Shown here: positions 168-57,658 of the stretch, one piece after another
How the letters are laid out: every line of letters begins with the position of its first letter
How positions within the stretch are numbered: position 1 is the stretch's first letter
Assembly (NCBI GenBank): GCA_964473285.1
Contig: CAYYOI010000004.1
Coordinates: 1 to 59,968 of the forward strand
DNA: 59,968 bases
Reading direction: 5' to 3'
Source: an uncultured Methanosarcinales archaeon
GTDB lineage: Archaea; Nanobdellota; Nanobdellia; Woesearchaeales; JACJVW01
Notes under the pieces: generated by a model
What the model was told of the DNA's origin: nothing
Seen by the model: only the letters and a program-made list of their open reading frames with translations
The model's database searches: none
Translations under genes and position numbers: made by a program

Positions 168-228
168 AGGATAGCATCATATCTAAAAGTGCCTCAGAGC
201 AATCGGAGATACTGGAGAAATAGATATC

Positions 229-237
229 TTTTTAAAG
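229..237 (+). promoter_or_regulatory. putative archaeal TATA box of the giant-protein operon
   Basis: TTTTTAAAG with purine-rich sequence upstream; the same motif precedes the S13 operon; purine-rich SD-like GGGGAGAGGGTG lies just before TTG282. Confidence 0.5.
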
Positions 238-281
238 TAGTCTATCAAAACTTACTAAGAGTAAAGGGGAGAGGGTGTAAT

Positions 282-3200
282 TTGAAAGTTTTATCAATCA
301 TAAGATATATTCTTATCCTAGTTTGTTGTTTAATCTCAGTATCAGGAAATACATCTCTTGAGTCAAGAGATTTTTGTGATTGTCTTGATTATGTAAATAA
401 ATCTCATGTCTTTTTTGAAAAAGGATGTAATTATACAATCCCTGATAATCTTGATAACTTGACTTGTTATGACTCCAATCTAACTGTTGTTTCCAATTTG
501 ACAGTCTTACTTTCAAATGAGTCTATTGTGTCAATTAGTAATGAATCAATTAGCACAAATGTTTCTAATGTTTCTTCTTCAAATCTGACAACTTTTTCCA
601 ATCAGTCTAACCAAACTTCTTCTATTATAAATGGATCTACAGATTCAATCATGTCGAATGCCACAAAGCCTACTATCATGATTGAGAAAGTACAGCTTCC
701 TGCTCATGTTGGAGAACCTGTCAATTGGGTTTATCGTGTTAAGGTTAACGGATCTTCTGATTCTGTAACAATTCCTCTTTCTGATTTGCCAAATGATGCA
801 AGGAATGTAGTTCTCGTACCTTATTCAAAAGATAAGGCTTACTTGGATAAGAGAGTAAGTACAATGTCTGGTTCATCTCATGTGCTTTCTATCCCTTCTC
901 GTAATAGTAGTGGTAATGAGTATTCAGTTATATATGAAACTCCTGCTCCGCATAAGCGTGAAGAAACCCAAAGAAATTCTTTAGGCATATCTAAAGGAGT
1001 TGTTGTTCATTCTGATGTATCTTATCACTATTATAATATTTCGGTAAATACTGATATACCTGAAACCGCTTCTGATAAAATTTCTTTTTATTGGTATGAT
1101 GGTACAAAGCGTGTCAATGTTTTAAGGGATAAGCGTTTTGATGTCAAACTGATTGATATAGATAATGATAATCTTATTGAAAAAATATCATGGGTGGTTC
1201 CCCAACTTTCTGAACAACATTTTGAGATTATTCTCAGGAGCTTGTCTTTTAGTACTCAGTCATCTCACGTAACTTCAAATTGGAGCATTCTTTTTGATAT
1301 GAACCATTCAGATTTAATTTCGTTTGAGGCTTTGTCACCTTTGCTTTCATTTGAAGGCCTTTATTATTTTGATTCCGGTTGGTCACAGATTACTGATTAT
1401 GAGGTATCAGGAAATACAGTGACAACTGAATGGGATCATTTAAGATCAACCAGAGGAAAGGTTGTCTATGAAGTTTTAGGTTATGACACTTTTTTTGTTA
1501 ATGTATCTTCTGTGAGTGGTTCAGAAATTGTCCGTAGTCATTATTATTATGAACCAGTAGGAAATTCAATATTGAATCTTGATTCTCCTATGTTCTCTTA
1601 TCGCCTCTGTTCATTGAATCAGAGTTTTTCATTTTGTGATGCTGAGAAGGGAGAACCAGGATATGATGGCTACGATATCATGACTAATTATACTGGTTAT
1701 ATAAGGTTACCTTCAAATGTTTCTGTCACTAGTGCATCAATGAATCTTCGTTCACTTCATACTGATCCAATATCTGAGTATGAACACCCAGATGGAATTC
1801 CTTCTTCTATAGTTCATCGGGCAGATTTGAGTTCTTCTTTTGTAGATGGGTTCATTGCTGCCACTCCTTATGATATTGTGGGTTGGTCAAATGAAACTAT
1901 TCTCTTTGAACATTCAATTTCTGGTCTTAATGATTTTGTTCCAATGGACATTTCTTTGCTCTTGGGTGATGAAATTATCGTTGCAACAGATAATGGATTA
2001 CATATATTCGCATCAAACTATTCCTCCTCCCTTGATAAAATTGATTCTTTAGACGGTGAATTTCTATCTGTGGCAAGTCAGTTTAATATTCCCTCAGCCG
2101 AGTTCAATAATACTTTCTCAGAGGCTTCTTCACTTCAAGAAGTATTTGGGGATAGACTTGTGAGTTTTAATATTCCTTGGGTCTTTAATACTTCAGATAA
2201 AAGATGTTTCCTTTCTGTTAAATTGAACAAGCATGGAAATCCAGATTCAAAGCTTCAGTTTGGATCAGGCAATATTACTCCTGATATGGTCTCTTCAAGT
2301 GATAACTTTATGACCTCGCCTGGTGTTCCTGGTTCTTTTACCTGTCTTGGATGTGAAACCAATAATATCTCTTTTGATTTTTCTAGTCTTGGCTTATCTG
2401 ACTTTTCAGCGGAAAGCTGTTCCTTGTCTCTTCCTTTATCTGCAAGTGGAGCACATGGCAATCTCTTGAATGTTTCCCTTGGTTCATTTTCTCAGACTAT
2501 TGATAGCTCTTCTGTAGGAGCTACGTCTTTAGATTCTTTTTCAACCCCTACTACTGCCACAGAATTTGATGAGTTTACTACTAGTTATTTTTATACGCAT
2601 GTATTGCCAGATGGGATTGGAACCTGTAGGCTTTCCATTGCGTTACAAAAGCTTTCGACAGATTCAGGACTTCTGTTGAGAGCCAACGGTAATGAATATC
2701 CTGTCAATACTCAAGGATTGCCATCAAATGTAATAGACAGATCCAATTTTACTTCACCAGACTCTATCTTGGATTTGAAGAGCCCTGTAAAATATTCTGG
2801 AATTGACCCAATCTCAGCTGAAACATGTTTTGTTGACACATACTTCACTTATGTGAATTCAACTACAGCAAATCTTACATTTTCTCTCAATGGCAATGTT
2901 TATGATATTGATAAGTCTCAGATAACTTCATCTGCATTCAAATCATTCAGTAAGACCGGTGCAGAAAATGTATCTTCTGATCTTCTTACAAAAACGTCTT
3001 TATCAGAAGATGGGGAACAAATTGATTATTATTTAAGTGGATTGTCAATTCCATCTGATTTAGAAGCAAAGGAATGTTTTGTTAAGGTCGGAGCATGTTA
3101 TGAAGGTTCAGAAGAGTCACTTGGAACATTAAAATTGAGTTTATATGGAAAAGATACAACCTTTGCTATCCCTACAGATTCGCTTTCCGAATGCTCACAA

Positions 3201-6200
3201 TCATCATTTTCTTATGTTTCTGTTCCTTGTCAGGATATAACCTCTAGTGAAAAACTTCAGTTTTATTGCGAAGGATGTGATTCCAATAACTTTTATAGGA
3301 TTCTTTATGATAATTCATCCTCCTCATTCAATTCATATTATTGGGATGGATTTGGCGATTATGAAAAATCATCGCAAGATTATCTTGTCAGTGTTTATAC
3401 AAATAGTTCTTTTGATTATAGTGTCTCTAGAAAACAAATTGAGTGTTCTGATGTCGGAGGAACTATTACTTTTAATTGTGAAGGATGTAGTTCAAATAAT
3501 TCTTATCACATGATGAGCGATGGTTCGAATCCAGGTTTCAGAATCTTTTCAAATACTTCTCTTGTTTATGGATGGGGGCACTCTGAATTACCCTGTGAAG
3601 AACTTTCAGCTGATTCAAACATTGGATTTTCAGCTAATAACCAATTCCGTATCCTTAAATCAGATGATATAGTGATCAATAAGATGGAATGGCTTACTGA
3701 TGATTATACACCTGTTGATCTTGATGTTCCATGCGATATCATAAACAGTGCTGATGAACTTTCCATTTCCTGTCCAGAGTGTACTTCTACCGATTCTTTC
3801 TATCTTTATCGGACAGATGAGCAATCAGGTCATACTGGAGATGCTTATCCTTATACAGATTTGAGTTTTTTTGTTGAAAGCAATACTTCTCTTGATTATT
3901 CCAAAGTTCAAATCCCAGTCAATTGTTCACTTGAAGACCCTGTGTTCTCCTGTCCTGAATGTACAAGTGATGATCATTATAATATCCTTTTAGGAGGTGC
4001 ATCCGGTAACACCTCTTTCTCTTTAGACAATGGTTCAACATGGAGCAATACTGCTTTTGATGCAGGAATTGGAGTGTATGTCTATGGTGCAAGCGATTCT
4101 GATGATATTGTTGTTGCTGATGCTAATGATAATGTTTCACTCCTTAACACAAGCCTGCACACACAATGGACCCTCTCATTCAATTCTCGTGTAAATGATA
4201 TTGCTATTGGTGAAGTTGATGTGGAATCAATAGGTAACGAAGTTCTTGTTGCAACCCAGAATGGCTTATATCTTTTTGATTCGAAGGGAAAGAACATTTG
4301 GAATTATTCAAAAGGTGCAAATACTGTTTTTATACAAGCCCTTGATGCGAGACAAGAAGCATATGCTGGACTTATAAATAATTCCTTGTACAAATGTGAT
4401 GCATCAGGTTGTCATAGTATTGCAACTTTTTCAGATGAGATTACTTCAATTTTAACTGGTGATTTTCATTCAGAACAAGGCTCTGAAATTGCTATCTCTT
4501 TTGATTCCGGACTCTTCAGTGTTTATGATTCATCCATGACAGCTTTAGAAACTCTAGATTTTAAGTCTGTAGTTTCTTTTACTGGGGGAAGGTTAATTGG
4601 TGTAGATCGTTCACAGTTGTTGGTGTCACACCTTAAAGGAATTAGTGCTTATGATTTTTCTCAACCAGAGAATGTTTCTTTACTTATAAATGATAGTGTT
4701 GTTTGGTCCCATATGGGTCTGCTAAGAAATGAAACCATTGATAATTTTGCTTATGCAATAAATATTAGTAACTGTTCTCCTTGTTATGTTCCTTTTGATA
4801 TTGAAACAGATTCTTCTGTCCCACTTCAACTATCTGATATTGATGTGAGGTTTGATTATAATTATAGCCTAGACTATACAGATGATTATACAAAATGGCT
4901 GAAAACATCTGATTTTATTGCAGGTTCACAAATACCTAACAAAGCAATCAAGATTGATTATACTTCTCCTTCGTTTCCTTTGTATGTCCAATATATAAGC
5001 CGTGAAGATCCTAATGAGGACAATTTTGTGTATGATTCCTCATCATTCTGGTTCAGAGACTCATACTGCCAGGGTATTGATACATTAGCTTATCTTGGAT
5101 ATACTTTACTCAATGGTTCATCTTTTCATTGTGATGAAGATTATTTTATCAGTGAAGAAGGTTCTGATTTTTTATGGGTTACTGGTGAGAAAGCTGTTCC
5201 AGTGGAAGTTTTAGTCAGAAATGGTTCAAATGATGCTATGAATTATTATAATATTACTTTAGAAAGAGGTATTGGTCATACTTCAGACTCTTTTCATAAT
5301 GTCAGTTATTCAAGTGATATTAATGAATCCTTCGTTGGAAATTTTGTAGATGTTATTGTAGATACAGATTCAGATGGATCATATGATCTTTTGTATCAAA
5401 ATTTATCTGGGTGCGAAGGTACAAGCTATAGAGTTTGTATTGAAGACCTCAATTCAAATGGTGTACCTGATCAAGTGATAACTACTACTTCTTTGATCAG
5501 TCCAGAAAATCCTTCGGTAAAATATAGGGTGATAGGGTATACAAATGAAATTCCAGAAATAACCTCTGTTGATATTAAACCATCTGGTGATAGATATTAT
5601 TTTGATACTGTATTATTCAATATTACTATAGCTGATTTTGAAAATGACATAAGGCAATTGACATTATATTTGAATACTTCTGGTACTGGCTGGTTTAATG
5701 CTGGCACAGAAACTACATTGACTGATCATGTCATTATTCCTGTGTTACTTAATTCTTCTATGGATGGTGAGTTGTCCTATCGTATTGAATATGCAGATTA
5801 TTCAGAGGAAGCGATTCACCTTGTGAGAAATACCACTACAAATAAAGTTTTCAATGTCAGTAAACCTTCTTTGATACTTGATATTCTTACTGATGATTAT
5901 GAAAGGATAAACCAAAATAATGTGTATGAAGATCATATAATTGCTAATGTTACAAAGGAAGGAACATCTTTTGATAATTATTCAAAAACAGATCTCCTTT
6001 GTGAGCTTTACATAAATACCTCTGAGGGTTACAGGAAACACTCTGATATAACAACAATTAAAAAGGGTCTTTGTTCATTTAATCTTAATAGTGATTCTCC
6101 TTATTCAACCGGCAACCACGATTATTATGTAAGGGTTAGGGCAGATGACCGTTTCTATCCTGCAACCTCTGAGGTGAAGAATGTTTTTATCTATTCTGGA

Positions 6201-9200
6201 TTAAATGCTAACATCTCAATCACACCTGAAACACTATATCGTAATAACGATCATGGAAATAATACCTTGTTGTTATGGAATGTTTCTGATATTAAGGATA
6301 GTACAGGCGATTTAATGACCGGCGCTGCAAATTATAGTGTTTTTTTTGGAGAAACTCTTATCTCCAATGGAACCTGTGATTCAAATGGATTTAGTGGCTC
6401 TTATGATGTTCCTTCATTTGAAGAGTTAGGCACGCATACCATCACAATACTTATCAATAATACTTTATTTGAATTATTTACACATTCAACCCAGGTAACA
6501 GTAAACGATGAACTTTTTGTTGAATTAGTGGATCCTTCTTCTATTGAGCCTGTTTATAAGGACCATGGAGAGGGATTGAATAATATTGATGATTCAACAA
6601 TTGAACTTTTTGTGGTGCTTGAGGATAGCCTAAATATTCCAGTAACTGATGCGACATACAACTTTAATACACCTAATAACTTTGTTGATTGTCTTGAATC
6701 CGGAAAAAAGACAAAAGAAGTAGATTTTGATGATGAACTTGAGCAGCCAATCGTAAAAGAAGGGTTCTATTGTATTTTCCATCCAGAAGACAGTTTGTCT
6801 CTTGGCTTGCAGAATTGGAATTTTACTGCATCACTTAAGAACCATTATCCTGTCAAATACACCGGTTCTTTCAATATCAAGGATACATTTGCCCCTGAGA
6901 TAATGACAAGTCCATCTTCTCCCGGACCTGTGTATATAAGAGGAACATCCAGTTCAAAGCTTTATATTAATTTTGAGGCTCAAGATAATGGGCAGAATGA
7001 GATTTTAAATTATTCATATTCTATAGATTGGGGAGAGACTGCCCTTATTTCAGGTTTTAATCAAAATTCTACTTTAACATATAGTTTCAATATTCCAGAT
7101 GATGAAGTTTTGGGTGAAAAAAGCCTTTTCATTTCATTGAATAAGGAAAATTATAAAGATTATTCAGAACAACTGAATTATCTTGTTCATGGTAGGCTCT
7201 ATGCCTTTACCCTAAATCCTGATAATGGAGTAAATGTAACTGTGGGAGATTCAGGAGGTCTTATCCTGACAATACAGGTAAAAGATGATTTTGATGAACA
7301 TGTACAAGCAAATGTTTCTTTTGTGCATCCTCCAGGATATTGCAGAAATGGAGTTGAATATTTTGGGAATGGAACTTACCAGTGTGAATACATGCCTGAT
7401 CCAAATGTAGCTCCAGGAGATTATACATGGAATGCTATTGCTGAAAAACCTTATCATAAGGAATCTAAAACTGAAGAGCGTAGTTTTACTATAATACAAA
7501 ATGTTCATCTTGAGTTTCTGCAGGATGAGTCTTATTTTAACCGAACAAATCATGTCGATTTGTCTGCGCAGTTGAATGATAAGTTTGGAAATCCTCTTGA
7601 ACTCTCAGGTTATTCATGTGTATGGAGTATTGATGACACTCCACTTGCGACAACTACTACTGATGAAGATGGAATTTGTAATTTTAGTATCCTTGCAGGT
7701 TGTGATTACCTTCCTGGACCACATTCTGTAAGGATTGGACTTAGCAAGCAAGACTCACCTTATACTTTAAAAGAGGAAACTAAAGGGAATATATACCTAA
7801 GAGATAAGGCAGAGGCGTCTATCATAACTCCTACTTCACTTGATGGAATAGCTGTAGGAGATAGCATCTACATGGAATCGTCTATCAGTGATAGCTGCAG
7901 TAATCCTCCTTCCTCAGAAATACCTTATGAAATAGATTGGTATTATTCCCAAATGGGTTCAGATGAAACAATTAAAGTCCTTTCTACTGATGAGGGATTT
8001 TGGACTGTACCTCCTGATGTATCAGGTGAGGGTATAATTTACATAATTGTCGATTATGATTATTTTAACACGAGTTATGGTACTCAGGAAATAGATGTGG
8101 AAGTGAATGATACAACTGGAATTCTTTTCTTGAATGAGGTTGTTGTAAGAAATTCAACATCTCAGAATTTCACCTTGAATGCTCAATTATCGCGTGAAGG
8201 AGACATCCCTATTAATGAGACCTCTATAATAGGTAACTGGAGCGGTTATACTTGTGAATGGTTCATCAATGATCAGTTTCAAGGCACTTCGATTACAAAT
8301 AAAGATGGTCTCTGTTCTATAAACTGGAGTACGACTTGTGAAGATCATTCATCTCTTTATTATCCTTTAGCGATAAATATCTCAAAAGATTCCCCTGACA
8401 TACCAATGTCAACCAATTATCTACAATCAGAGGTTGGAATATATGATAATGCTTCCTTGGAGATTGTTTCTCCTCAAAATCAATCTTCACATGTATATGG
8501 TGAGGAAGTTAATCTAGCAGTTAATGTATATGATAGTTGTGGTATTTCCTCTGCAGATTACAATCTGAATTGGTATTATCAGAAAAAAGACACTAAAACT
8601 ACAGTTGCTTCAGGGAAAAATACGACATGGAATGTTCCATCTCTTGCTCTTGACTGGTCGAATCTAACAGCATCACTTGATTATGCCCTTTATGATTCAA
8701 GCAATTCTACATTAACGCTCCATTTCAAAAGATATCTTAGCCTTTCTGAGCTTATTGTTCAAGAAGGGTTGCGCCAGGGGGATATGTCTCAGGTTCTTTG
8801 TAATATTTCAACCGAGGGGGTTTCAGATAGGTCAAATGTGGAAATACTTTTCATTCTTGATGAGTCTCAGAATTCAACAATAAGAAAAAGGCTATTATCA
8901 TTTGATGACGTAGAACCAGGGGTTGCACAAGGATTACTGGGTGGTAATGGTTCTGTCCGTGAAACTTGGTCTTGGTATAGGGATGTTAAACCATTTCAGG
9001 TTTATGCTAATGATTCTATATGTTTTGATCTTGATACTTCTGGCCTTGAATATACCTCTAGAGGGGATATCTATTTTTGCAAGTCTGAAAGCCTGAATTG
9101 TACTAATTATACTACTGTTGTTTTTAATCAAAGCGCAACAATAAATTCTACTGAACATGGAAACTGGGATTATTGCTTCAATATCACATCACCTTTCTAT

Positions 9201-12200
9201 TTTAGTGGAGGCACTCTTGGGACCTACATGAAAACAAGATCAATGACTACACATAATTCTACAAAAATAACAACTTCACGTTTAGATTCTTCTGATCAGA
9301 TTCTAAGAGGTGAAACTTACTCTTTTTTCAATGGCACTTATGATAATGCATCAAAAGAACTTTTGCAACGCTTTATAGGACAAAGATCCTCATTTAATCC
9401 CAGATCTATCAGAATTGTTGAAGGATCTGAAGAAGTACCTTTTATGTCTGAAGGATTCACTAAATATAGGTCTGATTTTAGTGAGTGGGATCAGGGCATT
9501 AATTGTAAGGCCTCATATTCCTCCGCATTAACATTGACACAGGAAGGTACACATCCGGATTATTGTAGGTATGAATCTAACCTTCTTTCTATACCTATTA
9601 AAGAGGATCTGACAGTGGCCTTCCAGGTTAAAAATGTTAGTATTGGTAGTTGGAAACTTGCTTTCAGGGATGAAGATTCAAAATTACATACTATTGGGGA
9701 ATCAGCATCTGATGGATTATTTACCTTTTCTCTTGAAGATTATGTAGGTATGAATATAACACGTTTTGCACTTTATACACAAGGGTATGATTCAACTGCC
9801 ACTTTTGATCTTTTGGAGGTGGTTGGTGAATCGGGTACTCTTACTTGGACATTAAATGGTACTACTGCTGGGGGCTCTGACCGTAATTATACAATATACT
9901 TTAAAACTCATGAAGATCTTGATACTGATTTATTTTCATTGGGGATCTTACCGGTATATCAGACAGAGATGTATGAGAGAGCCCGTTTTATGAATGGAAA
10001 TACAAATACACTTGTATACACTACAGGGAATGATAAACCAGGGTCTCTGGCAAATATGCTTGATAATCTTGTTACTGATGAAGTCATAACTTCTTGGACT
10101 CGTACAACTGATCAAGGTGATGTACAGAATATACATAAGAATAGTTCTTCATATGGGATTCTTCTTTATGAAAGCAGTTCTGGGTTTACAGATTCAGAAT
10201 CTAATGCTTATACAAGTCCTGAACCCGAAACACTTGCAGCTATAGCAAATTTCCTTGATCAGGGAGGAAAGCTAATATACATTGACAATCGTCTTGATTA
10301 TGATTCAACAGGGCTTTCTGATTTATTCACTTATACCAGTAATACCTGGAACCCATCAACGCATTACTGTAGCCCATATGAGGGGTCTTATCAGGCTTGT
10401 GGACAACCAACAAACGAAACACCTGACACCTTTTATCCTGCTGATAATAATAGTGTGGGGTTTTTGATATTTAATGATCAGATGGTTCACTCATTTACAG
10501 GGGGCGATGGTGAATCATGGATTACTGATGAAAGTGGAACACATTCTCTTATGGTTTCAGAAGGATATTCAACTTTAACCACTGCGCCAGGTGATAGTTC
10601 AAACAGCGGTTTCTCTAAGCACCTCAGTTTTACAGGTAAGCTTGCTGCGCCATATGATCGATATATTCCAACTACCCGGCTTTATGGCCTTGTTCCTTTG
10701 GGTTACACAGATAAGCCTTATTTACAGGTAATCTCTATGTATGCTGATACTGTTGTTGAGGTCTTAAACTCTTCAAATAAAATAATAGATACAAAAACAC
10801 TTGATGAATTTGAACTCTGGCGTACAGGCGCACTTGAGTCTTATCTAGGAGATACATTCATTGTAAATGCTTCTTCACCTGTTCTTGTATATCTGAGCGA
10901 TAAGCCTTATCTTACTGATCCTGTTCCCAGTATTCTGGGTGCCAACAAGCGATTCATGTATTATGATAATGGAAATTTCTTATATCGTGCATTAAACGGT
11001 ACTACAACAGGTTATATCTATGATTCTGTGGGAGAGGTTGATAGCTTCACTATCTCAGAGGGTGAAACCTACAAACCATTCTTATTTCCGGGAGTGTATG
11101 AGGTCCAGACTGATGCGCCTATTGTTATAGAACCTTCCTTATATAGTGGAGTTTCTCGTGTGGTGGATTCATCAGGGTCTGGTATAGGCAAGGAATTTTC
11201 AGTTTCAGCAGAAGCCCTTACTCTAGTAGGTCATGGGAATACCTCTGTTCATTTGAGTAGTGAACCTTCTAAAAAATCAGAGAATTATGATCATATAGGG
11301 TATGAGTTTTATACGTATCTTAGTGGTTCACCTAATATTTTCTCAACTTCACACGATACAACCGTGACAATATCTAATCTTGATTCTGCCGGTTTAGTCA
11401 TAGAAGAAGATGAGCTTCACCTACCACTTAAGGCCAAACTTAAGACTTATTCTCCAAAGACAAGACTTCTTTTGCATTTTGAGGGTTCACCTGGAAAAGC
11501 ATATTCTTTCTATGATAGTTCAGAAACTCAGGTTGCAAATGAATGTAATGTTACTTTAACTTCTGATTCACGATTTGGCACTGCTGCTGATTTTAATAAG
11601 GGTTTGATTGAGGTTGATGCCCTTGATTTCGGGTCAAATTATACTCTTGATTTCTGGATTAAGCATGGGTCTGAAAACCAGACATTTGTATCACAGTATG
11701 AGAATCAGAATCAGGCATTCAATATTAGCTGGTCTTCTGGTCTGCAGGCAGAGTTGATTGCCGGTGAGAATGTGATATTACTTAAGGATGAAAACCCAGA
11801 GTATACTGATTCATGGTATCATGTTGCATTAGTGCATGAAAATTCAACATATAAGCTTTATCTGAATGGTTCATTAATTGATAGTGTTGAAAGTCAGGCT
11901 TATCCTGAACCAGATGCACCTTTTATAATCAATCCAAGGGGTTTAGTTGATGAATTCCGATTTGTAGAAAGTGCTGACGAACCGCTGGGTGGGCTTTATG
12001 GTACTGTTTCTCCAGGATTCTATAGAATCAGTGCGGACAAGCCTATAGGTATTTATGATGGAAACTCACAGACTGAGAGTTATTCTGTATCATATGGTAA
12101 TGATCTTTGGGTACATGTACCATCATGGCCTGGTCATCCTGGTTCACTTTTCATTAATGCAATTGAGGATTCAACTGATGTAACTGTTACTGATCTTACA

Positions 12201-15200
12201 AACAATAAACAGTCAAAGAGATTTTCATTAGATTACGCGGAATCATGGGATTATCATGAAAAGATAGATACAAAAAAGGGCAAGCTTTTTCATATTGCTT
12301 CAGACAATCCAGTGATCGTTCAATCAGGAGTTATAGGCGAAAATATTTATGCACAGCTTCCAAACTTTGCAGGAGATCTAGTATTTACTAAACTTACACC
12401 TGGCAGCGCGTCTCGTACAATAATTGATAGCTCATTTGGCCATGGAATCCTTTATGATCGATTGGAATCTTCAGGAAATAGCTTGAAATCTGATTTAAAC
12501 AGTACTCAGGTCCATGCACATTCTGGAGATAGTTTCCGGTTGAATACTGAAAGAGTGCGGATATTCAGTGAAGCTCCACTAAATGCTTATAGCATCCTTG
12601 GATCAAGTGTTCCTTCACAGACACAATCAATTGCAAGCCTTGATAATCCTGGTGGCCTTGGTAAGGTGTATTCTGTTCGTGCAGGAGAGAATGCAAAGGT
12701 TGCAATTGTATCACTTGCTGATCTTAATAGAATAAGTGTAACTGGAGATCTCTCTACTGAGTTCACTTTAGGTAAAGAGAGTAACCGTCTATTAGATGTT
12801 CCCGGGGGTCTTGTAAGCATAAATGCAACAAAACCTGTAAGTGTTTTTGTTATAGGAGATTCAGGATACGCTCCTTTGTTTGTAACACCTGAGACAGTAA
12901 TGTCGGGACATTCCCAATCATATTCTATAAAGGATACTAATTTTACTGATGTTTCTTTCTTTAGTGGCTCAAGAAGCCCTGTAAAAGTGGTAGGGGATAT
13001 AGCTAATGATACAGTTTCAGTTTACAGGGCATTTTCACCTCATGTGGCATATGAGCTAGACGCAGATATAAATGCAACCGAAATTGGAGATATCAATGCG
13101 GATGGATTAGAAGACATACTTTTTGTTGATGCAGCGAATAATCTGAATTACCTTTTGCCCCATCATGATAGGCAACTGGATGTAAATGTAGAGGAGACTG
13201 CAGGTATTGAACGTATAAATGAACCCACAACAATATCATTTAATCCTGCATATGAAATAACTGATGACTGTCGTGATGTGAGAATATATACCTCTGATGG
13301 AGATGAAATAGGACGTGAGATAATAAAATGCCGGCAATTCAATGTTACACTTATAACACATGTATCATTGGACCCTTATGAAAATCTTTCTCTTCATATT
13401 ACATATGGAAATCCTTTCATTGCTGATGAACCTAAGCAACCAGTCTGTCCTGTGAAAACCAGCGGTTCAATAGAAGCAGGGATTGTGGATTTTGGTGATG
13501 CAGGACAAAGTACTGATAGGTTGGGTTTCAAGAAGACCCTTGAAGATAGTGGATGGATTCTCACAAATTACCAGGATAAGACTGGAACAGATATAAATGA
13601 GACTGCATCATCAAGAAAGGTTAATGCATATACTGAAGATCTTGATTCTTATGATTTCCTTGAATTTACGACTACAGGTGGATGGCCACCCTATGGAGCA
13701 TGGCATTTTGGCGGTAATGATCATTCATATTACGGTCCCCCTCCTGAAAAAATAGATTATTGTTCTGATGAAGGCGCCCCTCAGGTATGGACCATGCCCA
13801 GATATAAGGTGGCTCCAGGCCAAGAGATTACTCTTTGGGGGAGGATGGAATTCGAGGACGATACGCAAGCAACATATGAATGGGATTTTGGTGATGGGAC
13901 TACATCTGGAAAAACTTCATTTTCTCAGGAATCAGATACGCAAAGGGATCTTGCGCAAAAACATACTTATCATGGAGCAATTGGAAAGGTCTTTAATGCT
14001 ACGCTATGGGTCAGGCAAAATAATGGAAAATTCTGCTCACAGAATGTTTTTATCGAGATGGTCGATGATGACCATGACCTTGAAGTCTTCCAGGCATTGC
14101 AGGATGGGCTTAAAGTATTATATGAGAGACAATTGAGTGATGGTCGATGGGGTCATGACTTGACTACATCGACACATGATTATTATGATGGTTCCGGGAC
14201 AGCAATGTCACTTATTGCATTCAGTAATGTGGGGCATCTTACTTCTAATGATCCTTCATCTGATATTTATCATCAAACTGTTAAGGATGCTGCCGATTTT
14301 CTGGTTGATTACATGCAGGTTGTAAATGTTGGTAGTTATACACTTCCTGGATCCCATCATGATAATGGACAAGGCCTGAGTTATTACGCAAGAAGTGGAG
14401 GCAGATTTGGATATGTTGATGGCTTTGTAATGATGGGTCTTGCTTCCACAGCTGATGAATACTATAAGCCTTATGTGATTGATATGGTTGAGAATCATAT
14501 AAGAGTAGCATACTATGGAGGTCACAGGACCTGGAGATATTGTGATAATCGCGCAGGGTTTGATAATTCGGCACATCAGTTTCCAGCCCTTGGGATGGAG
14601 GCTGCTGAACAGATTATGGGTATAGATTTTGACTTGGAGACGGGTGGACCATATGATATATGGGGGCCAAATAGAGACAGAATTTATTCCACTTCATGTA
14701 GTTCAGGTTCAAGTAAGGGAAGATTTGGATATACTAGTGCAACTTGCAAAACAGGATATAGTCGAATGGGTTCTCATGTGGGCGGACTGACTAATCTTGC
14801 ATCAGCTCATGAGCCTGTATCAAGTGTGTATGTTCAGGATGCAATAGAGCATTCCTGCAATAATTGGCAATATCACAAGAATAATTACTACAATTTATTT
14901 GGAATTACTAAAGGGCTTAGATTATTTGAAGTGACAGATTTGAACTGTGCATCTCATGAGAATTTTGATTGGTCACGTGATCTTGAGGAGACTGTTTTGA
15001 CGCATCATTCACAAACAAATAACTTTGAATCATGGGATAAAGATTTTCACCGGAATAGAGCTTCAGGTCTTGCATCTGCGTTGATTATTTTGTCTGGAAC
15101 AGTTGTAGGAGCAATACCAATGGCTGATGCTGGTGAAGAGATGGAAGTGATTACAGGTGTAGACGTGTTGATGGATGGTTCTGAGTCATATCATCTGAAT

Positions 15201-18200
15201 CCGAATCAGAAAATCCAGACATATCACTGGGATTGTGAAGGAGATGGCAATTTTGAATATGTAGGTGAATCTCCTTATTATAATTGTTCATGGAATTCTC
15301 CAGGGACATACAATGCAAAACTTCAGGTAAGTGATGATAGTACTCCTACTTTAACAAATACAGATAGTGTAAAAATAGAAGTGAAAGATACTAGTCAAAA
15401 TGTTCCTCCAGTTGCAGATGGAGGAGAGGTCTATACCAATTGTTATGCATTGACGAATACTACATTTGATGCATCAGGTTCATTTGATTACAACGGAGAT
15501 AACCTGACATACCATTGGGATTTTGATGGTGACGGGGATTATGATGATTCTTCCAACATCTCTTCTCCTACAAATGAATTTGCATTCAATTCTCCTGGTG
15601 AGTATTATATCGCTTTGAAAGTAAGGGAAGCAGATACAGATATGCATCTCACTGATACTCATAAGCGTATCAAGGTTGTTTGCGATAGAGAAGATACAAG
15701 TTACTATTATTGGAATAAGGGCTACAATACAATGGATAGATTCAGATCTTATCTTGAGAATGGCGGAGTGATGTGGATTGATAATAGTGGAAGTTCAGGA
15801 GATGGTTATGGGGGTTTCTTTGACCTTTATGCTGGAGATTTCACAGATGGAAATGGTTATGTGCGTTGGAATACAAGCGAAGGCGATACTACTGAAGGAT
15901 TGATGCAGTCTTCCTACTCTTCATCAAGGCTATTGAATTATCCAACCTCTTTAGATGAAGAAGATTTGAATACTGAAATCATGTTATGGACAAATGGTTC
16001 AGCAGGGGGTAGTGGTATTGATATAAGTGAAGGCTTTGTTCCTATCCTTACACGTAATGGATATGATATGTTGGTTGCAAAACGTTATGGATGTGGTTAT
16101 GTTCTTGCTAGTGGAGGTGATTTTAGCTCAGATCTATATGCACCTGATGATATCTCTGATCCGGCTCCATATAAACTAATAACGAATATGATCTCTTTGT
16201 CTACTGGCCAACACAGCGCTTATCCTCCTTTGTCTGTTGATATAGAGGAGGGAGATTCAAGCTTTGCTTTTTCATATCAAGGTGGGGACACAGGTATAGA
16301 TACCTCATCAAACTATGGATTGTCTGTTGGAAATACTGATTCAGATCAGCAGGCTGAGATCTTGTATGCTGCAGAAGATGGAACCTCAAGAATCTTTGAT
16401 TTTATGGAAAAATCCGATGAACAAACAAGTACACCTTATAGTATAGTAGGTTCAACTATATTTAGCTATGAGAACAGTACTCTATTTGGATTAATTAAAG
16501 AGGACAATACTACTTTGCTTTATGATGATTCATTGGAGGACTCCCCTAGGAATCTTGAACATATCTCTTTATTTGATATCGCTTCAGTATCACTTGACCA
16601 TGACCATTTAATATTTATCAATTCTTCCCAAGAACTTGTTCTTTTTGATCCTGTCACAAATACTGTTAAAAATCTAGGTTTCAAGGTTGGCAGATCTGTA
16701 ACAGCAGGAGATTTTGATGATGACCTTTATGAAGAGATTGCCTTTATCACTGCCAATAAAACCCTTGGCTTTTATGATATTATTGATGATGTTCTTTTGG
16801 TTACCAATATATCTCTTCTTGACAAGAGACAGAGTCTTGGTGCAGGAGATCTCGATGGTGATGGAATTGATGAAATCACATACCTTGTTAATGGTACCTT
16901 GAAGATATATGATTCCTCTTCAACATACCATGATTATCTTATTGTAAAGGGTGAGGGAAGAGTTTCTTTGTCGGTTCCTGTTAATCCTGTATTTGAGCAG
17001 AATTCAAGTATAAATTCAAAAATTATTAGCTATAATGGTACAGGAGTTTACAGGTTGCCATCCGGGTGGGATACTTTTACATTTAACAGCACTGAATCTT
17101 TTATTTCAGGAGCGAATAAACCCTACATACTTGATGATTTTGATTATCCAGACAGTATATATTCCAATGGATGGTCCCAATGTGGCACAAATTTTGATTG
17201 TTCAACCCCTGTAAACTCATCATTTAAGACTACCTTCAAGACTTCTTTTTCAGGGATAGGCTCACTAAAATTCAATACTGAAAATGGACAAGGTGGTATT
17301 GAGCGCGAAGTAGATAAACCTTTATCATCCCATAGCAAATTAAATTTTGCATGGATGGTTCCATCTTTTGATCAAGGAAGCAGTGACCCTAATATAATCC
17401 TTAAAGTCCTTTTTGATGGAGGAGCTTCACTTAATTACTATATTAAGACGAGTTCTTATGGGTCTATGGTATGTGGTTTTTCAGGCTATATCTGCATTAC
17501 AGGTGACAATCTCAAAGATGCAGGGTTTGATAATTGGTATACAGTAAAACGTGATCTATTAGAAGATTATGAGGCCGAAGGTTTGTCAGGATCCCCAACC
17601 TCTATTAAAGCAATCGGATTATTTGTTCAAAATAGTGATAATGTTCCTTTCGAATTTTATCTTGATTCCTTGCGTCTTAATCACGCCAATCCAGAAATTG
17701 AATTATCTGATTCTGTGCAGGTAAGCAATCATCATGGTAATGTGCCTGAACTCACTTATTCAATAGGTGAAGAAGAAACTCTTCAATTGTCATGTTCTCC
17801 TGATGATTTGGGATATGATTATTTATTCTGCGAACTTGATGACAGAATTAAAATCAAGGCTACAAATGATACATTAGTCTTTAGTGGTACTGGTGATGAT
17901 ATATATGCCACTCCATTAATCTCAGAAGGCAGAAACGGAACTCTTACTACTCTCTCACAGAATCAGATTAATTATATCACTACACCTCAAGATTCTGCTA
18001 CAGTCACTATAGGGGGTTCTGATAAAGTCATAAATGAAAATGAGTTTATGCAAGTAGGCTATGATGGAACCACTCATGTTACATCTAGTTCTCCTTTTAT
18101 TGCATTATCTTCAGCTGTGAAGGAAAGGCAATCTCTCAATATTAATAGCACTTTCAACTATTCATACAACCTTAATTCAAGTTGTTTCTTTGATAGCCAG

Positions 18201-21200
18201 TGCACTAGTGGGTTCTGTAATAAGGGATTTTGTACCACTCATAATTCATCATTACATCTTGGCGTACTTTTGGACGAATGGTTTATTAATAATGGGAATG
18301 AATACAGCTGTGTAGGCTCATATGATTCAGATGGGAATCTTTCCTGTCATAATGGCTGTGGTGCTCCTGGAAAAAATTGTACTTTCATGCTTGATATTCC
18401 AACAATTCCAATCAGTTCACATGCTAACCATCTGTTGTTCCTTAATATGAACAGTTCAGGACAAGGAGGAAAAGTATCAATATATCTTAACGATTATCTT
18501 ATTGCTGAAAATCTTACACCTCCAGTTAATGACTATGGCAGTCTGCATGTAAAAGTACCACACAGATTCATAGAATCAGGTTCATTCAATGATCTTGTTA
18601 TAGAAAGTACGGGGACTTCAGGTGTAAGTCTAGATTCCTTTATTTTCATTGCTGAGGATACCGTTCTTGTGTCTGGCCAGGTTGAATTGGCAGTTGTTGC
18701 CGATCTTTTTTCTTCCTATGATAATCTTGAAGTCAATATCTCCTCTCCTTTTGAAACTTTACCTACGCAGCTTGCATTTAAAATGAATGGGAATACTGTG
18801 CTTGATTCTGATCGTAATGTAGAGAATGCAGGGCAAGTCTATGTTGAAACCTTTATATCTGAAGCTGCTTCTGAGTCTTTTGTAATCTCTGCAGATAGTG
18901 GACTTGGCAGTGATGAGATCACTCTTATTCCAGTAAATCAGTATTCATATTCACCCCATTATGGATATTATCTTCCTGGTTTGTTTGATCCTGCTACTGT
19001 TTCAGAATATGATTCAAATAAGATGATAAGGCTCCTTTATAACGTATTCTCAGAAACCGACGTTGCTGGCGGCCTTGATTATGGACTAGGTAATCTTGAA
19101 CGTGTACATCGCCATTCAGACTGGTGGAACAAAACTTATCTTTACAGGATTCCTTTGACTCTTCATGCTGGCGAATTTGATCGTAAATCTTTGGCAGTTT
19201 CAATAGATCTTAATGTAACTCCTTTACTAGATAATGTTACAGGTGCATCTCAACCTGCATTCAGAATCAATGGTTTAAGAACTGATTCTATATTAGAAGA
19301 AACAGACTCAAGTGGTGTGGCTTCTTTTATTTGGGACACTACTTTGGAGGAAGGAGGACCTCATTTGATTGACTGTATAATCAATAATGCTTCAGAACGT
19401 TATATCATAAGAGAACCTGATTCATTATCAGATATTTCTGTTGTAGCTGATAAGATTAATATAAGCTCTGATTATTTAGATAGTCGTGAGATTGATCCTT
19501 TCAATTCTTCTAAGAGGCTTGTGCCTTCAGAAGTAGTATATCGTTCAACACATCCTATTGATAAGTATCCTGATAAGCTATATCTTGCAGCCAATGCTAC
19601 TACAAAATGGCAGACTTCGTCAAGACAAGGCGAGATATATCCTATCGATGGTGCAACAATTCATTTTTATATTATAAAAGACCTTACAATAAGGGATCAT
19701 CTTACATGTACAGTTAATCTGACAGAGTATGAAGCCAATCAAAAAGATGGTGAAAACCACTGGTATGATCCTTACCATTGTCATGTTGTGTATGATCCAC
19801 TCAATGATTCTGCCGTAGGTTCTTATAAAGTAATAGTCAATGCTACAAAACCTAACTGGAGTTCGGAGTCAAGAGAGAAGAATTTTTCTATTCGCGGTTA
19901 TCTTGTAACAAATATCAGTGAACCTGAGAGTGATATCTTCCTAGGTTCAACACTAAATCTTGATGCAGATGTTTTGACTGACATAAATACATCTCCTGAT
20001 GATTTAAATGTCAAATGGTATTTTCGTGAAACAAATGAGACTTGTTCATCCTGGACAGATACCAATATCACTGGCCAATCTGCTGGTTTTTCAATTGGCT
20101 GTGACCTATCAGCAACCAAAACTTATAATCTTATGGCTCGTGCATTTGCAAAGGGTTATGAAAGTCCTAGGACATTTGGGAATTATGAAAATTGCGAAGA
20201 GCAACGAAGCAATGCAGACATTCTTGAGTTCCGTGTAAATACTTATGTCAGACCCAATATAACAAGTGGTGTGCATGGCGATCCAGACGACTATATAACA
20301 CTTGATTCTGATGTTGTTGTTACTGATTCAGGAGAATTGAGTATTGATTGTCAGGTCCTAAAATCCTGTGATTCTATTGAAACACCAATAAATGTGCCTT
20401 CCTATGCCGCAAATCTTTCATGTGAAGGATGTACAAATCCCAATGTTACATGGCCTCTGAGTACATCTCCTGATTCTGAGGGGACCTATACCTTTACATT
20501 CGATTTTTCAGGGGAAGAGCTTGATAAGGATTATAATTTCACCTGTTCAATCAAAAATTATTCATATTACTATACAAATCCTGCAACTGTCACAAAGACA
20601 TTGAGACCTGTATCACATATTGGTGATCCTGATTATTGTAATTATGATGGTTATTGTAATGATGGAGAAACATGCCTTAATTGTCCTGAAGATTGTGGTT
20701 ACGATAATCTTTTTAAGGGAGGTGTTTATAGCGATATGGATCTGGTGGAGGGTGAAAATTATACTTTGCATCAGGAGACTGGATGTGGATGTTATTCGGA
20801 GGATTTCTTTTGTGATAGTGTTTATGAAGTAACTTCATCTGCTTGTAGTGATTGCCAGAATTCAGTAACACCTAAAGCCCCTACTATTGTAAGGCAAAGA
20901 ACTGATGATTGTTGGGGTCTTTGTGATGGTACTAGATGTGATGGTTCTTGTGATGGTGTTTCTTCAGATAATGTGATGGGTAGTGGGGAATCTTTCTTTA
21001 TATATGCAAATATTGCAGACCCCAATGAGCAAGATAAATTTGACGCGTGGATTGAAGATACTGATGGAACAAAACTTGCTGATATGGAACAGGTTAGTGG
21101 GACAAAATATGAGTCTGTCATACCATTTAGTACCGATTCCTTTGTAACTGATAAAACCTATCTGATTATTGCCGAAGATGATAGTCAGGATAAATTAAGA

Positions 21201-24200
21201 TCAAATAAAACTGTTACAGTCTATAAAGATGATGGAATGCCCTCAATCGATTCTTTTACAGTGGAGCCTACAGCACTTGCAGAGGGGAATACTATTACTA
21301 TCGGAGTCACAGTCTCAGATTTAGGAGAAGGTGTTTCTCATGTCATCCTGCAAAATGGAACTTCAGATAAGACTTACCTTGAAAGGCAAAGTGAGACTTA
21401 CTTCCAAGGCGAATTGATAGCTAAAGATACTACAGGTTCAGGAAATATGGATATAAATATCTCTGTGTATGACCGTTCAGCTAATGGGCCAGTTGTAGAT
21501 TCAACTACTGTTACTGTTGATACAAATCCACCTCATATCTATGATTTGTATGCTTCTGAAACTTATTTTGAACCCCCAACTAGCACATTTGATATTACTT
21601 TTAGTGCTACTATAGAAGATAGTAATATAGAAGATGCATGGGTGTATAGCCCTGATGAAAACCAAAAAATTTGTGACTTAAACCTTAATGGTGAAAGTCA
21701 TGAATGTACCGTTACATTTGAGGGAGGTTATCCAAAGTTTGGTTCATCTGATGGTACAGCAAAGGCGACCTATCAATTCCTTGCAAATGATACTTATGGA
21801 CAGATGTCGGGAAGTGAAGGGATCTGTAATGATGATTGTAAATTCATATTTTATGATTCAACACCTCCTGAAATAAATTCAATTCTTTTGGATGATAAGA
21901 GTTGGCCTTCAAATCATATGTATGTTCAGTCAGGAACTGATGTATCAATAAAGGCAGAAATAACTGACAAACCTGTCAATGACAGCTCTTATTTTATCTC
22001 ATCACGTGAATTGCTAGATTCAAACTTACAGTCAGTAGGTTCCCTTGAACATTATAATGAGGATGTATGGAATATAACACGAACTATAAATGCTGATTCG
22101 ATATATCATTTGTATGCAGAAGATGAAGCAGGACATTCAGAACAAGTAATGCTTAACTTCACTATAGATGATATTTCACCTGATATAACTATTCTGAGTC
22201 CTGTATCTGATGATGTTGTCAAAGGGACAATTTCATTAGTTATAAACATAACTGAACCTCATCTTGAGACAGATGCCATTGAATACCGTGTGCTTACTGA
22301 TGGTAGTGAGAGTATACCCTGGAGTAAACCTATTCATGATACAGGTGGAATCTATGAAGATTCGATTGCTACTTCAGTGGATCTCAATGATAGTGAAGAT
22401 ACCGTTATTCAGGTTAGGGCTAATGATACTGCAAAAAATAAAGGTTCTACAAGCGTATCCTTTATTGTTGATAATACAAAACCTACTATCACAATAGACT
22501 CACCTCTTGAAAGCTCAACGATAGAAGGACTAGTGTGGCTTAATGCAACGGTTGAGGATGAGACAAGTGGCTTGGCAGAGGTAAGTTATAGAATCGATGA
22601 GGAAGGATTTAATTCATCTTGGGATACTATTGATCCCTATGCTTACCAATTCAATTCATCACATTATATTGATGGTAATGTAAGCATATGCATACGAGCC
22701 TTAGATAATGGTAATAACCAACGTGAGGTTTGTATAGATCCTGTTAATATAGATAATAACGCTCCTGTAATCAATATAACTTCTCCTGAAAACCTTACTC
22801 ATTTGTCTGGTGCAGTAAACTTGAGCGCACAAATCTATGATGAAGCTGGTAACCCTAATCCTGGTTCATATAGCTGTGGTTTTGCTTCTACAACTGAATC
22901 CTCCAATATTGTAGAAGATGAGAACTTTACCTGTAGCCTTTCGACAAAGGGATTGGATAATCATACATGGTATGATCTTTATGTTAATGCATCAGATAAA
23001 CTTGGTCATACTTCAATCAAATCCATCCAGATTTGGGCAGATAATCTACCACCTAATGTTTCACAAGTAACCTTGAGTGATTCAATCCTTTATGAAGGAC
23101 AAGAAATTGAAGTTGTTGTTAATGTAAGTGATGAGTCAGATTTCTCAATTAAGAATGTTACGGTAGATTCACAGATTATTACATGGAATGGTAGTATTTG
23201 GGTTGGTAATGTGACACCTTATATGGATTCTGAGCCCTTTGATAATCTTTCAATAGTTGTTTATGATCATGCAGGAAATAATGTTGATGTTACTTCTCCT
23301 TTTGAATGGGATATTGGTGATGTATCCATTTGGAACTTCACCAGCAATGCAATGTATGGATATTCTTCATCTGAACAAGAACTTGATTTTTCAGTATATG
23401 CTAAAGATGATGATGACAATCTCAAGAATGTAACAGTAGGTTCAATAGAAATGACAAATTCTGGAGGTAATCGATTCGTAGGGACTGGAACTCCTGAACA
23501 AGCCAATGGTTGTGATTCAGAAGGATTGTGCACTCTTTCAGCTGTTGTTTTTGATGAAGGAGAAAATTCTAACAATGTCTCTTTAAACCTTACAATTGAT
23601 AATACACCTCCTTTAATCCATAAATTTACCATTTCCACGCGTGATTCTTACATGAATTCATATGATAATTACTCATATCTTATCCAGGCAGGTGACAGTA
23701 TTGGATTACTAGAAGCAAAAATAAATGGAATTAGTATGAATGCAAGTTCCATGTCTACTTCTGTAAACTATACTTTGTCAGCGAATGCTACTTCTATTGG
23801 ATGCACTGCTCCTGTAGCACCATATTCTAACTGTACTATCCAGGGTTCAGTCTATGACTGGGTCCTTAATAATGACACAAAAACTATTAATGTTAAGGTT
23901 GATGATTTCAAGCCAATCTTTTCAGGTATATCTGTAAATGGTCAGTTAACCACTCCTTTAGTCTCCCGTGACGGAATGGTGTTTCTTGCGGTAAATCTTT
24001 CAGGAGAAGGCCCTAATACAATCCATCAAGTCATTGCCGAACCTACTGCTCATGAAGCAGGGAACCAGTCACTTAGTTGGAATGGAAGCCTATGGACAGG
24101 TGATATCAAGATTGATAATGATAATTATATCAATCTGAGCGCAACAGATAAGGCCTCGAATACTGCATACAACAATTCCTTTAGAATAGATGTAGATCTT

Positions 24201-49257: not shown

Positions 49258-49893
49258 ATGATTAGATTCAGGGTGAGTTGGAAATGGATCCCTCTTGCTT
49301 TTCTGATACTTTTTTTACTGATGTTTTTAGTATTTGAAATGACAGGAATCTTTACAATTAATACGGCAGAGAAGTGGATAAAAGAAGCAGGGCCTCTGGC
49401 AGGGTTTGTTATTGTGCTTTTGCTGGTGAGTGATCTTGTGACACCTGTTCCTTCTTCAATACTTATGACTTTTTCAGGTTCACTTTATGGAATATGGGGG
49501 GGTACTTTTTTTAGTACAGTGGGTTCTGTTGGTGCTTCAGTAATTGGCTTTTTGTTAGGAAGGTTTGGAAAAGAAGGAGTAAGTAAAATTATAACAAGGG
49601 ATGATCTTCGTTCAATGGATGGTTGGTTCTATCGGTGGGGAGAAGGGATACTTATATTATCAAGAATGATTCCCATGGTTACTGAAACAATGTCTTGTTT
49701 TGCGGGAATAACAGACATTTCCTTTCGCCGTTTCTTATTATTGATTCTTGTGGGGACAGTTCCCATGACTTTTTTTTATGCATATGTTGGGCATATGTCA
49801 GAATCAGTCAGCCAGTGGGCTTTGCCCTTGATACTTGGTATAGTGGTTCCAGGTATAGCTTGGATTATGATGCATTCTTTTTTAACTCGATGA
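49258..49893 (+). CDS. DedA/TVP38 (VTT domain) membrane protein
   Basis: PVPSSILMTFSGSLYG..GASVIGFLLGR..LSRMIPMV..FAG..FRRF..GTVP. Confidence 0.9.
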   Translation: MIRFRVSWKWIPLAFLILFLLMFLVFEMTGIFTINTAEKWIKEAGPLAGFVIVLLLVSDLVTPVPSSILMTFSGSLYGIWGGTFFSTVGSVGASVIGFLLGRFGKEGVSKIITRDDLRSMDGWFYRWGEGILILSRMIPMVTETMSCFAGITDISFRRFLLLILVGTVPMTFFYAYVGHMSESVSQWALPLILGIVVPGIAWIMMHSFLTR

Positions 49894-50833: not shown

Positions 50834-50834
50834 T

Positions 50835-57574: not shown

Positions 57575-57658
57575 TGCGAGGGACGAGGTTTGAACTCGCG
57601 CAGGCACTAAGCCACTAGGCCCTCAACCTAGCCCGTTTGACCACTCCGGCACCCTCGC
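57575..57658 (-). tRNA. tRNA-Leu(GAG)
   Basis: Acceptor GCGAGGG/CCCTCGC-A, D-loop AGTGGTCAA, anticodon arm CTAGG-TTGAGGG-CCTAG, long variable arm, T-loop TTCAAAC; CCA not encoded; no intron. Confidence 0.96.

Follow-up and report, generated by a model that had tools for sequence, protein, structure and literature searches.

How does a protein chain fold in which five small beta units of one kind are followed by five of another, each with a conserved cysteine? The question is raised by a giant open reading frame (ORF) in a stretch of 59,968 nucleotides (the window) that forms positions 1 to 59,968 of contig CAYYOI010000004.1 (GenBank assembly GCA_964473285.1), from an uncultured Methanosarcinales archaeon placed by GTDB in the Woesearchaeales. 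The RNA polymerase subunit encoded in the window has its nearest named relatives in metagenome-assembled genomes of Woesearchaeota / Nanobdellota. The ORF lies at 189..35624 on the forward strand and is uninterrupted over 11,811 codons from a GTG at 189; residues are counted here from nucleotide 189, as in an initial annotation of this DNA. That annotation had proposed that the ten units (five N-type, five C-type; hereafter the 5N+5C module) arose by repeated insertion of a domain into the same loop of itself, giving a stalk that runs out and back. Our analysis suggests that a there-and-back paired stalk is probable and that true nesting, five levels deep, is plausible from the sequences.

The motifs on which this proposal was based, five N halves and then five C halves, are all present in the translation of 189..35624, and cysteine codons lie exactly at the ten positions that had been paired (nt 2205/3924, 2418/3732, 2625/3594, 2826/3444 and 3075/3228). 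More specifically, residues 651-1300 contain five N-type and then five C-type units, and only N5 and C5, in the centre, adjoin each other. The units are listed below with the matches of hidden Markov models (HMMs) built from the homologous units.

2169..2381, forward strand: N1 unit, core cysteine C673 (nt 2205), then a CxGC linker with C719/C722 (nt 2343-2354); HMM match at residue 672, E 0.0017
2382..2588, forward strand: N2 unit, core cysteine C744 (nt 2418), placed by alignment; HMM match at 742, E 0.1
2589..2789, forward strand: N3 unit, core cysteine C813 (nt 2625); partial HMM match at 827, E 0.013
2790..3038, forward strand: N4 unit, core cysteine C880 (nt 2826); HMM match at 878, E 1.7e-19
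3039..3428, forward strand: central contiguous N5-C5 domain, the turn of the hairpin, with C963 (N core, nt 3075), C970, C1002, C1014 (first of the C unit, nt 3228), C1027 and C1030; HMM matches at 961 (N5, E 1.6e-10) and 1012 (C5, E 1.9e-21)
3429..3578, forward strand: C4 unit, short form of ~50 residues, C1086 (nt 3444) and CxxC at 1097/1100; HMM match at 1083, E 4.5e-10
3579..3716, forward strand: C3 unit, short form of ~46 residues with the CxxC lost, C1136 (nt 3594) only; HMM match at 1134, E 0.1
3717..3908, forward strand: C2 unit, C1182 (nt 3732) and CxxC at 1195/1198; HMM match at 1180, E 1.8e-13
3909..4094, forward strand: C1 unit, C1246 (nt 3924) and CxxC at 1255/1258; HMM match at 1253, E 1.5e-11; its last strand continues into a propeller blade

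Six of these units (N4, N5, C5, C4, C2 and C1) are strong, with E 4.5e-10 or better; N1, N2, N3 and C3 are weak alone (E 0.0017 to 0.1), yet stand in register with strong units of relatives. In cleaner relatives the N-type unit is ~80 residues long and consists of the CxGC linker, a strand, and a core running from C[YF]VKT through ..NY..G..GNLTF.LNG..Y.VDE..I, while the C-type unit (~70 residues) reads C-x12-CxxC, then ..YYNI.., and ends in ..VRVYTN.SL.Y. The conserved N core comprises ~39 residues in three strands. Profiles of the two unit types have no detectable homology to each other (hhalign probability 0.28% and 0.5%), which fits two different halves. Cysteines in the module region total 22, an even number, and the six of the N5-C5 domain are invariant in all 12 aligned sequences.

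Ordinary scans had been expected to miss this pattern, and they do: Tandem Repeats Finder reports 0 arrays in the DNA of 1800-4500, and Pfam gives no match above cut-off on the module or its homologues. With no array in the DNA and two unrelated unit types, the module is not an ordinary tandem-repeat protein. A protein self dot-plot in BLOSUM62 windows, suggested as a check, bore out one half of the pattern: C-unit matches scored 57 and 49 against a maximum of 40 in 20 shuffles, whereas the N units reached 33 at best and did not rise above the shuffles. Profile searches of the PDB with the whole module, the central domain, the C units and the N periods returned chance rows only (E of at least 0.3); the Shiga toxin B chain, at E 0.4, was judged to be one of these and was not used. 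Feature matches for the central domain in the ESM Atlas were uninformative, and no description of the 5N+5C module was found in the open-access text of main articles. Judged by these searches, module residues ~655-1305 are a new sequence family.

The surroundings of the module proved more telling. A blade HMM with a 35-position consensus was seeded from three intact blades of a homologue, P0005, taken by coordinates. By this HMM the flanks of the module consist of propeller blades with a period of ~42 residues, and complete blades are found both before and after it.

1965..2018, forward strand (residues 593-610): last complete blade before the module, blade HMM positions 12-30, independent E-value (iE) 5e-4
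2058..2084, forward strand (residues 624-632): putative orphan first strand of the split blade, placed from its position in relatives
4095..4169, forward strand (residues 1303-1327): second part of the split blade, blade HMM positions 11-35 only, iE 0.029
4197..4541, forward strand (residues 1337-1371 and 1420-1451): complete blades after the module by the blade HMM, with a weak one between them

The blade at 1965..2018 and the post-module blades have a DNA motif (family D3) in common. Right behind the module, 8 of the 11 proteins listed have a blade without its first 6-15 positions (E<0.001 in 4); at the same place as in the window, P0004, P0005, P0006, L005 and P0003 have a partial blade at 1e-4 to 4e-8, and a post-module partial blade is also seen in P0003, P0019, P0028 and L030. 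The missing first strand is found 47-51 residues upstream of the N1 core cysteine in 8/15 proteins, scoring 10.5-15 bits in 4; the corresponding 9-mer of the window is too degenerate to score, while the strand is clear in relatives. In P0005, read directly, two blades and a first strand precede the module, and the remainder of the split blade and four further blades follow it. Among 14 flank-only matches scanned, the module-less relatives P0015, P0018 and P0025 have seven contiguous blades; in the window the HMM finds only about 5. Compared with solved propellers, the post-module flank profile (A4) matches Cake10 at E 2.9e-16 (7 stretches), Cake9 at 1.3e-15 and Cake8 at 7.2e-14, as well as v31Bagel8 and the PQQ-like 3hxj ('Pyrrolo-quinoline quinone') at 2.3e-6. 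In Pfam the window flank stays below curated cut-offs (best Beta-prop_CGLA, 21.7 bits vs 26.8), and the precomputed Pfam list for P0003 includes PF13360.

By these profile matches, the module is inserted within one blade of a probably seven-bladed PQQ-like beta-propeller. This location is new relative to the initial annotation and is the strongest new result of the analysis. Strands 1 and 2 of a propeller blade are neighbours connected by a short loop. Because the module interrupts one blade between neighbouring strands, its two ends should nearly coincide and the chain should go out and come back, which lends support to the there-and-back topology proposed earlier. It follows from such a path that N1 and the last C unit would be closest to the propeller, with N5-C5 farthest from it.

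The arrangement is conserved in the full-length relatives that were aligned. A HMMER scan of 1.84 billion representative proteins with residues 541-1440 gave 26 matches at E <= 0.001, 12 of them at E <= 1e-10. Two alignments were made, A1 with 11 rows and A2 with 21 rows, from which P0003 and P0010 were left out. All 16 full-length rows of A2 have residues at the five N-core and the five C-first columns and a contiguous central N5-C5, so that the earlier statement that only the central copy is contiguous holds for the window and for 16/16 relatives alike. Unit HMMs alone detect 5N+5C in 11 of these 16 rows, some units weakly; the remaining five are divergent and colinear with the whole-module profile. 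In one genome (G581) the unit HMMs detect 4 N units and 5 C units. The genome of the window has three giant paralogues with the module at an equivalent place in each, and the window module is colinear with those of the other two (28% over 678 residues, E 8e-63; 25% over 738 residues, E 1e-38).

Module-bearing rows span several families of the order, in which the module is rare (9/201 and 10/401 sampled genomes). In a class-level sample of 401 genomes no module was found outside the order, the 4 that match, the window's own (G000) included, all belonging to it. The module is absent from both same-genus genomes searched, G030 and G153 (91-96% complete), which could reflect patchy gene content or giant genes that were not assembled. 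Word-indexed homologue searches with the window region and with A1 found nothing, and one with P0003 found only P0028 (identical to the gene of locus L005); no match was obtained with the window module in a genome-contig scan or with P0010 and part of P0003 in metagenome-contig scans. As a side observation, C4 and C3 occur in a short form (~50 residues; the window and 9 other rows) or a long one (~70 residues), and the CxGC linker before N3 and N5 occurs only in proteins with long C4 and C3 (r 0.58-0.69). Since the lengths of C4 and C3 vary together, this covariation assigns no pairing level.

What would hold an outgoing and a returning array together? The initial annotation had suggested disulfides between N and C halves, and the cysteines behave as such a link would predict: the N-core and C-first cysteines are kept together or lost together, with both at every level in 17 rows and neither at any level in 4 rows. 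CxxC pairs are likewise kept or lost jointly at every site and row except one (C5 of P0007). The number of cysteines is odd in each unit type taken alone. An extra pair in the central unit, C970/C1002, is kept in 20/20 rows covering it. A sixth CxxC, CLGC at residues 719-722, had been missed earlier; it represents the 'CxGC' motif that recurs throughout the family in the linkers separating N units, up to five times in relatives. The pattern fits one disulfide class joining N core and C unit, plus local CxxC pairs, as far as alignment columns can tell. Since the loss is all-or-none, a pairing order is not readable from partial loss.

These cysteines also admit a metal site, a proposal orthogonal to those about folding. 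Here the N-core cysteine, the C-first cysteine and the CxxC would form a Cys4 zinc site at each level, as a zinc ribbon split between the halves. Four cysteines per level would suit such a site, and zinc-ribbon families do appear in Pfam beneath their cut-offs: Zn_ribbon_InsA at E 0.017 and DUF7838 at 0.02 (15 bits vs cut-offs of 26-28), and Double zinc ribbon in 2/12 central domains with a best E of 0.0013. We nevertheless think zinc very unlikely because one clade has lost the N-core and C-first cysteines at all five levels and retained every CxxC; a two-cysteine zinc remnant makes little sense, whereas the loss of one of two separate disulfides fits this clade well. The linker CxGC motifs offer two cysteines only, and the region is extracellular by prediction and rich in N-x-S/T sequons.

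If the arrays pair, N1 may lie beside the last C unit (mirror order) or beside the first (parallel order). Several measures rank the 120 possible mappings between the arrays. By the correlation of N- and C-array identities within 16 proteins the mirror mapping is 5th and the parallel mapping 55th, and the mappings ranked above mirror include its 1<->3 and 2<->4 equivalents. Recent internal duplicates make some proteins informative: N units 1 and 3 are alike (71% in P0007, 61% in L005), as are C units 1 and 3 counted from the end (81% and 67%, respectively), and by unit identity mirror ranks 1st in P0007, 2nd in L005 and 4th in P0004. Rate covariation among orthologs places mirror 3rd and parallel 47th, and residual ortholog identity of N_k tracks that of C_k best at levels 1-3 (0.17, 0.25, 0.36). 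Pooled mutual information places mirror 9th-10th and parallel 81st-112th. Unit similarity and rate covariation thus favour mirror over parallel order, as sequence measures of which none is decisive; mutual information and the blade geometry point the same way, in agreement with the mirror order claimed initially. Parallel pairing is disfavoured by its ranks and by that geometry.

The arrays were also folded as two chains with ESMFold2 (N-array, residues 655-950; C-array, residues 1081-1312), each with an alignment of our own making. The interface score ipSAE was 0.57 (runs 0.57, 0.65, 0.56) against 0.00 for the best of 3 controls; the runs had at least 79% of contacts in common, with a partner predicted local distance difference test (pLDDT) of at least 65. 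With an unrelated partner, pLDDT fell from 66-70 to 30-32 for the N-array and from 66-74 to 30 for the C-array. Falling apart alone and rising together is the behaviour expected of half-domains, and it lends weak support to that model. As no sequence-similar structure has been solved, recall of a known complex is unlikely. In calibration, the mark was reached by 58/80 solved complexes and 2/110 mismatched pairs, and at scores of 0.60 or less by only 7/80 solved complexes and by both mismatches, counts that hold only roughly here since our own alignments were used.

Pairing need not mean nesting. In a zipped hairpin the path would also run out and back with N_k beside C_k, each unit being a small beta domain that folds by itself and is merely cross-linked to its partner by a disulfide. 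All evidence for hairpin and pairing fits this arrangement equally well; the N and C units are unrelated families with periods of their own (~80 and ~70 residues), and a variant protein with two partnerless C units, P0003 (see below), indicates that C units may fold alone. The fall of each array to a pLDDT of ~30 without its partner speaks against it, as autonomous domains usually hold their confidence; so do the N core, small for a stand-alone domain with its three strands, and the contiguous N5-C5 with six invariant cysteines across both halves. We regard the zipped hairpin as unlikely, while taking it seriously.

The explanation that we favour, and hold to be moderately probable, is a stalk that doubles back on itself, with N_k and C_k together making up a single stapled two-piece domain at every level; the five would be nested in each other and in the blade and would present a tip domain. 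The module would sit in the first hairpin loop of the third blade of the seven-bladed PQQ-like propeller, which would lie outside the cell, toward the N-terminus of giant membrane-anchored proteins on the surface of Woesearchaeota (DPANN archaea). The chain would exit the blade, run outward via four N-type beta units, turn in the contiguous N5-C5 tip domain with its own disulfide C970-C1002, return via four C-type units and re-enter the same blade. Packing would follow the mirror order, each N unit on the C unit at its own level (N1 on the last C unit), and each pair is most likely one two-piece beta domain; the propeller would then host a nest of five such domains, one inside another. The predicted staples from N-core to C-first cysteine are C673-C1246, C744-C1182, C813-C1136, C880-C1086 and C963-C1014, with the CxxC motifs pairing locally. 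The product may be a rigid, glycosylated double-stranded finger that keeps the tip domain off the propeller. We count unit anatomy, conservation, blade insertion and the cysteine class pattern as established at the level of sequence; from these we infer the physical pairing, the mirror order, one fold per level, the disulfide map and the function.

Several observations weigh against this explanation. The window itself has no mirror signal (rank 102 of 120), and across proteins the mirror mapping is never uniquely best. By its calibration, a two-chain pass like ours is false more often than true when the underlying guess was not a likely one to begin with, so that the modelling gives weak support, and the ESM Atlas model of P0007 is poor (predicted template modelling score 0.28, pLDDT 0.47). 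The four rows without N-core and C-first cysteines form one clade (support 96/94), so that the co-loss is a single lineage's history rather than repeated events and is statistically weak. Homologues differing in nesting depth, expected by the initial annotation, did not appear as matched sets: in the 10/401 and 9/201 module-bearing genomes of the order only 5+5 was found, with no 3+3, 4+4 or 6+6. The one variant, P0003 (residues 935-1550), has 3 N units directly after the orphan strand and then 5 C units, all five with their first cysteine; P0010 (residues 614-985) likewise has 3 N units, its C side being cut off. Two partnerless C units are a misfit for obligatory pairing, and strict nesting would not predict 3N+5C: C units may manage without partners, unless this form is transient or a product of mis-assembly. 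The C4C3 and C2C1 blocks of P0003 are near-copies of each other, and the protein could represent an intermediate of array growth, a deletion on the N side or an assembly collapse.

Such points could be taken to favour two plain tandem arrays, like beads on a string, that form a long floppy loop with no specific N-C pairing and are equal in number by accident. The deviating count of P0003, the N repeats of the window that are no better than shuffles and the single-clade origin of the cysteine co-loss would all suit this. It is harder to reconcile with 5+5 in 16/16 full-length rows from several families of the order, with both module ends anchored in one blade loop, and with the odd cysteine numbers per unit and their all-or-none class pattern, which speak against independent units. 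The ranks of the mirror mapping (3rd to 10th of 120 in three measures) and the weak pass of the complex score against its controls also count against unpaired arrays, which we consider improbable.

The favoured doubled-back stalk can be extended to a fuller history, which we put forward tentatively and with less than even confidence. It would be a six-level Russian doll (blade > D1 > ... > D5) of disulfide-stapled two-piece domains of a fold without relatives, grown by matched duplications on the outgoing and the return side, with P0003 as an intermediate and with the stalk serving as host-contact probe of a protein that ends in a CedD/VirB4/HerA-like ATPase tail.

The function of the stalk we infer purely from context, on the basis of the extracellular sequon-rich region, the PKD and LamG-like domains present in the giant protein and the small-genome archaeal lineage: the finger is probably a probe with which the giant adhesin-like protein of an ectosymbiont makes contact or binds. 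The true start of the giant gene is likely the TTG at nt 282, the first in-frame start to be preceded by a ribosome-binding-like stretch (GGAGAGGGTG); the product would then be 31 codons shorter than the listed ORF, with a signal or anchor right at its N-terminus. Sequons reach to about residue 11400. Outside the module, the giant ORF has the following features.

Residues 34-52 of the giant ORF, forward strand: hydrophobic signal/anchor, typical
34458..34514, forward strand (residues 11424-11442): single transmembrane segment near the C-terminus
34608..34859, forward strand: HerA/CedD/VirB4-like P-loop ATPase domain in the cytoplasmic C-terminus

The part that includes the transmembrane segment and the ATPase behind it (34458-35624) is free of sequons past the membrane, and the ATPase resembles the HerA, CedD/CedB and VirB4-type DNA and secretion ATPases; its profile matches are DUF87 at 4e-15 and the NCBIfam CedD model at 2.9e-12, the latter far below cut-off. 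These matches describe the fusion of a giant predicted surface protein with a translocase-like motor. A second ATPase of the same HerA/CedD/VirB4-like kind is encoded by the ORF that comes next (35621-37615), and an SMC/Rad50-like coiled coil by the one behind it (37615-38655). This cassette, a giant ORF ending in a DUF87 ATPase and then a separate DUF87 ORF of ~670-730 residues, recurs at both paralogues of the window's genome (G000:C11:28552-30805 and G000:C7:10817-13145) and in three further module-bearing genomes of the order (G083:C10:174066-176620; G041:C41:61780-64055 and G041:C97:28355-30730; G581:C10:6091-8725).

Two other cysteine-rich stretches of the giant ORF are unlike N or C units. 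One lies at ~19,700-21,000 (residues ~6500-6930), with 24 cysteines in the bin of residues 6501-7000; the other, at ~33,640-33,800 (residues ~11,157-11,200), is a doubled 'CG.GICD..E....CP.DC' shortly before the transmembrane segment. Directly downstream of the ATPase genes, an ORF of 1,864 residues (38652-44246) has no Pfam family and only a sub-threshold fragment of a C5-epimerase. On the reverse strand, a gene run at 49865-55408 encodes an O-methyltransferase, a type I phosphodiesterase, a UbiA prenyltransferase, a xylose-isomerase-like TIM barrel, a TatD-like DNase and a myo-inositol-1-phosphate synthase, and may serve lipid head-group or inositol metabolism; a tRNA-Leu(GAG) lies at 57575-57658.

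Deep self-nesting of one domain type has essentially one solved case, the Si3 insertion of cyanobacterial RNA polymerase. If nesting of the module is true, it would be a second, independent example, suggesting that such architectures are a repeatable evolutionary solution, here in the form of an extracellular, disulfide-stapled and strictly linear nest within a propeller blade, and it would offer a natural template for rigid two-stranded protein stalks. For domain parsers and structure predictors the module is a demanding test, with Pfam, tandem-repeat scans and the ESM Atlas model all failing on it. In the giant surface proteins of Woesearchaeota it also singles out a conserved and probably exposed segment, well delimited for expression, mapping and imaging.

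Comparison with Si3 is the most instructive. Si3 is an insertion in the trigger loop of the beta' subunit with eight copies of the sandwich-barrel hybrid motif (SBHM), four of them discontinuous; the Thermosynechococcus fragment has dimensions of 150 x 50 A, and remote stretches of the chain come together to build SBHM-2 to -5 (PMC10895346). Among the 48,551 insertion events of a survey, Si3 is given as the extreme, a six-level nested structure (PMC13114784). Like the module, Si3 repeats one small beta domain, has discontinuous copies that host the next, lies in a loop of a host domain and is elongated as a whole. Unlike the module, it is cytoplasmic and without disulfides, with branching and continuous copies, whereas the module is predicted to be extracellular, with the strict order N1..N5 C5..C1, conserved cysteines in each half and a propeller blade as host. 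The nesting of Si3 was solved by crystallography, while that of the module is deduced. Pfam and PDB profile searches gave no sequence relation between the two.

Integrins provide a second comparison, as they have both a domain inserted in a propeller and a three-level nest of unlike domains (PMC10137042). The integrin ectodomain resembles the module in carrying an insertion in the seven-bladed propeller of a cell-surface adhesion receptor (the alpha-I domain) and in nesting (beta-I in hybrid in PSI). Its nests consist of unlike domains, at most three deep, whereas in the module one domain type would occur five times; no homology between integrins and the module was detected. In the integrin PSI domain a long-range disulfide ties its two segments, and the alpha-I domain is placed between blades rather than within the hairpin of one. 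PQQ-like and designed 'Cake' propellers resemble the host domain through profile A4 and are uninterrupted, whereas blade 3 of the host carries an insert of ~650 residues. Streptococcal antigen I/II, finally, is an adhesin with a there-and-back stalk in which N-terminal repeats pair with C-terminal repeats and a tip domain is presented. Its stalk differs from the module in being a bacterial one, formed by an alpha helix wound with a polyproline helix instead of stacked beta domains, and in not being known to carry disulfide staples.

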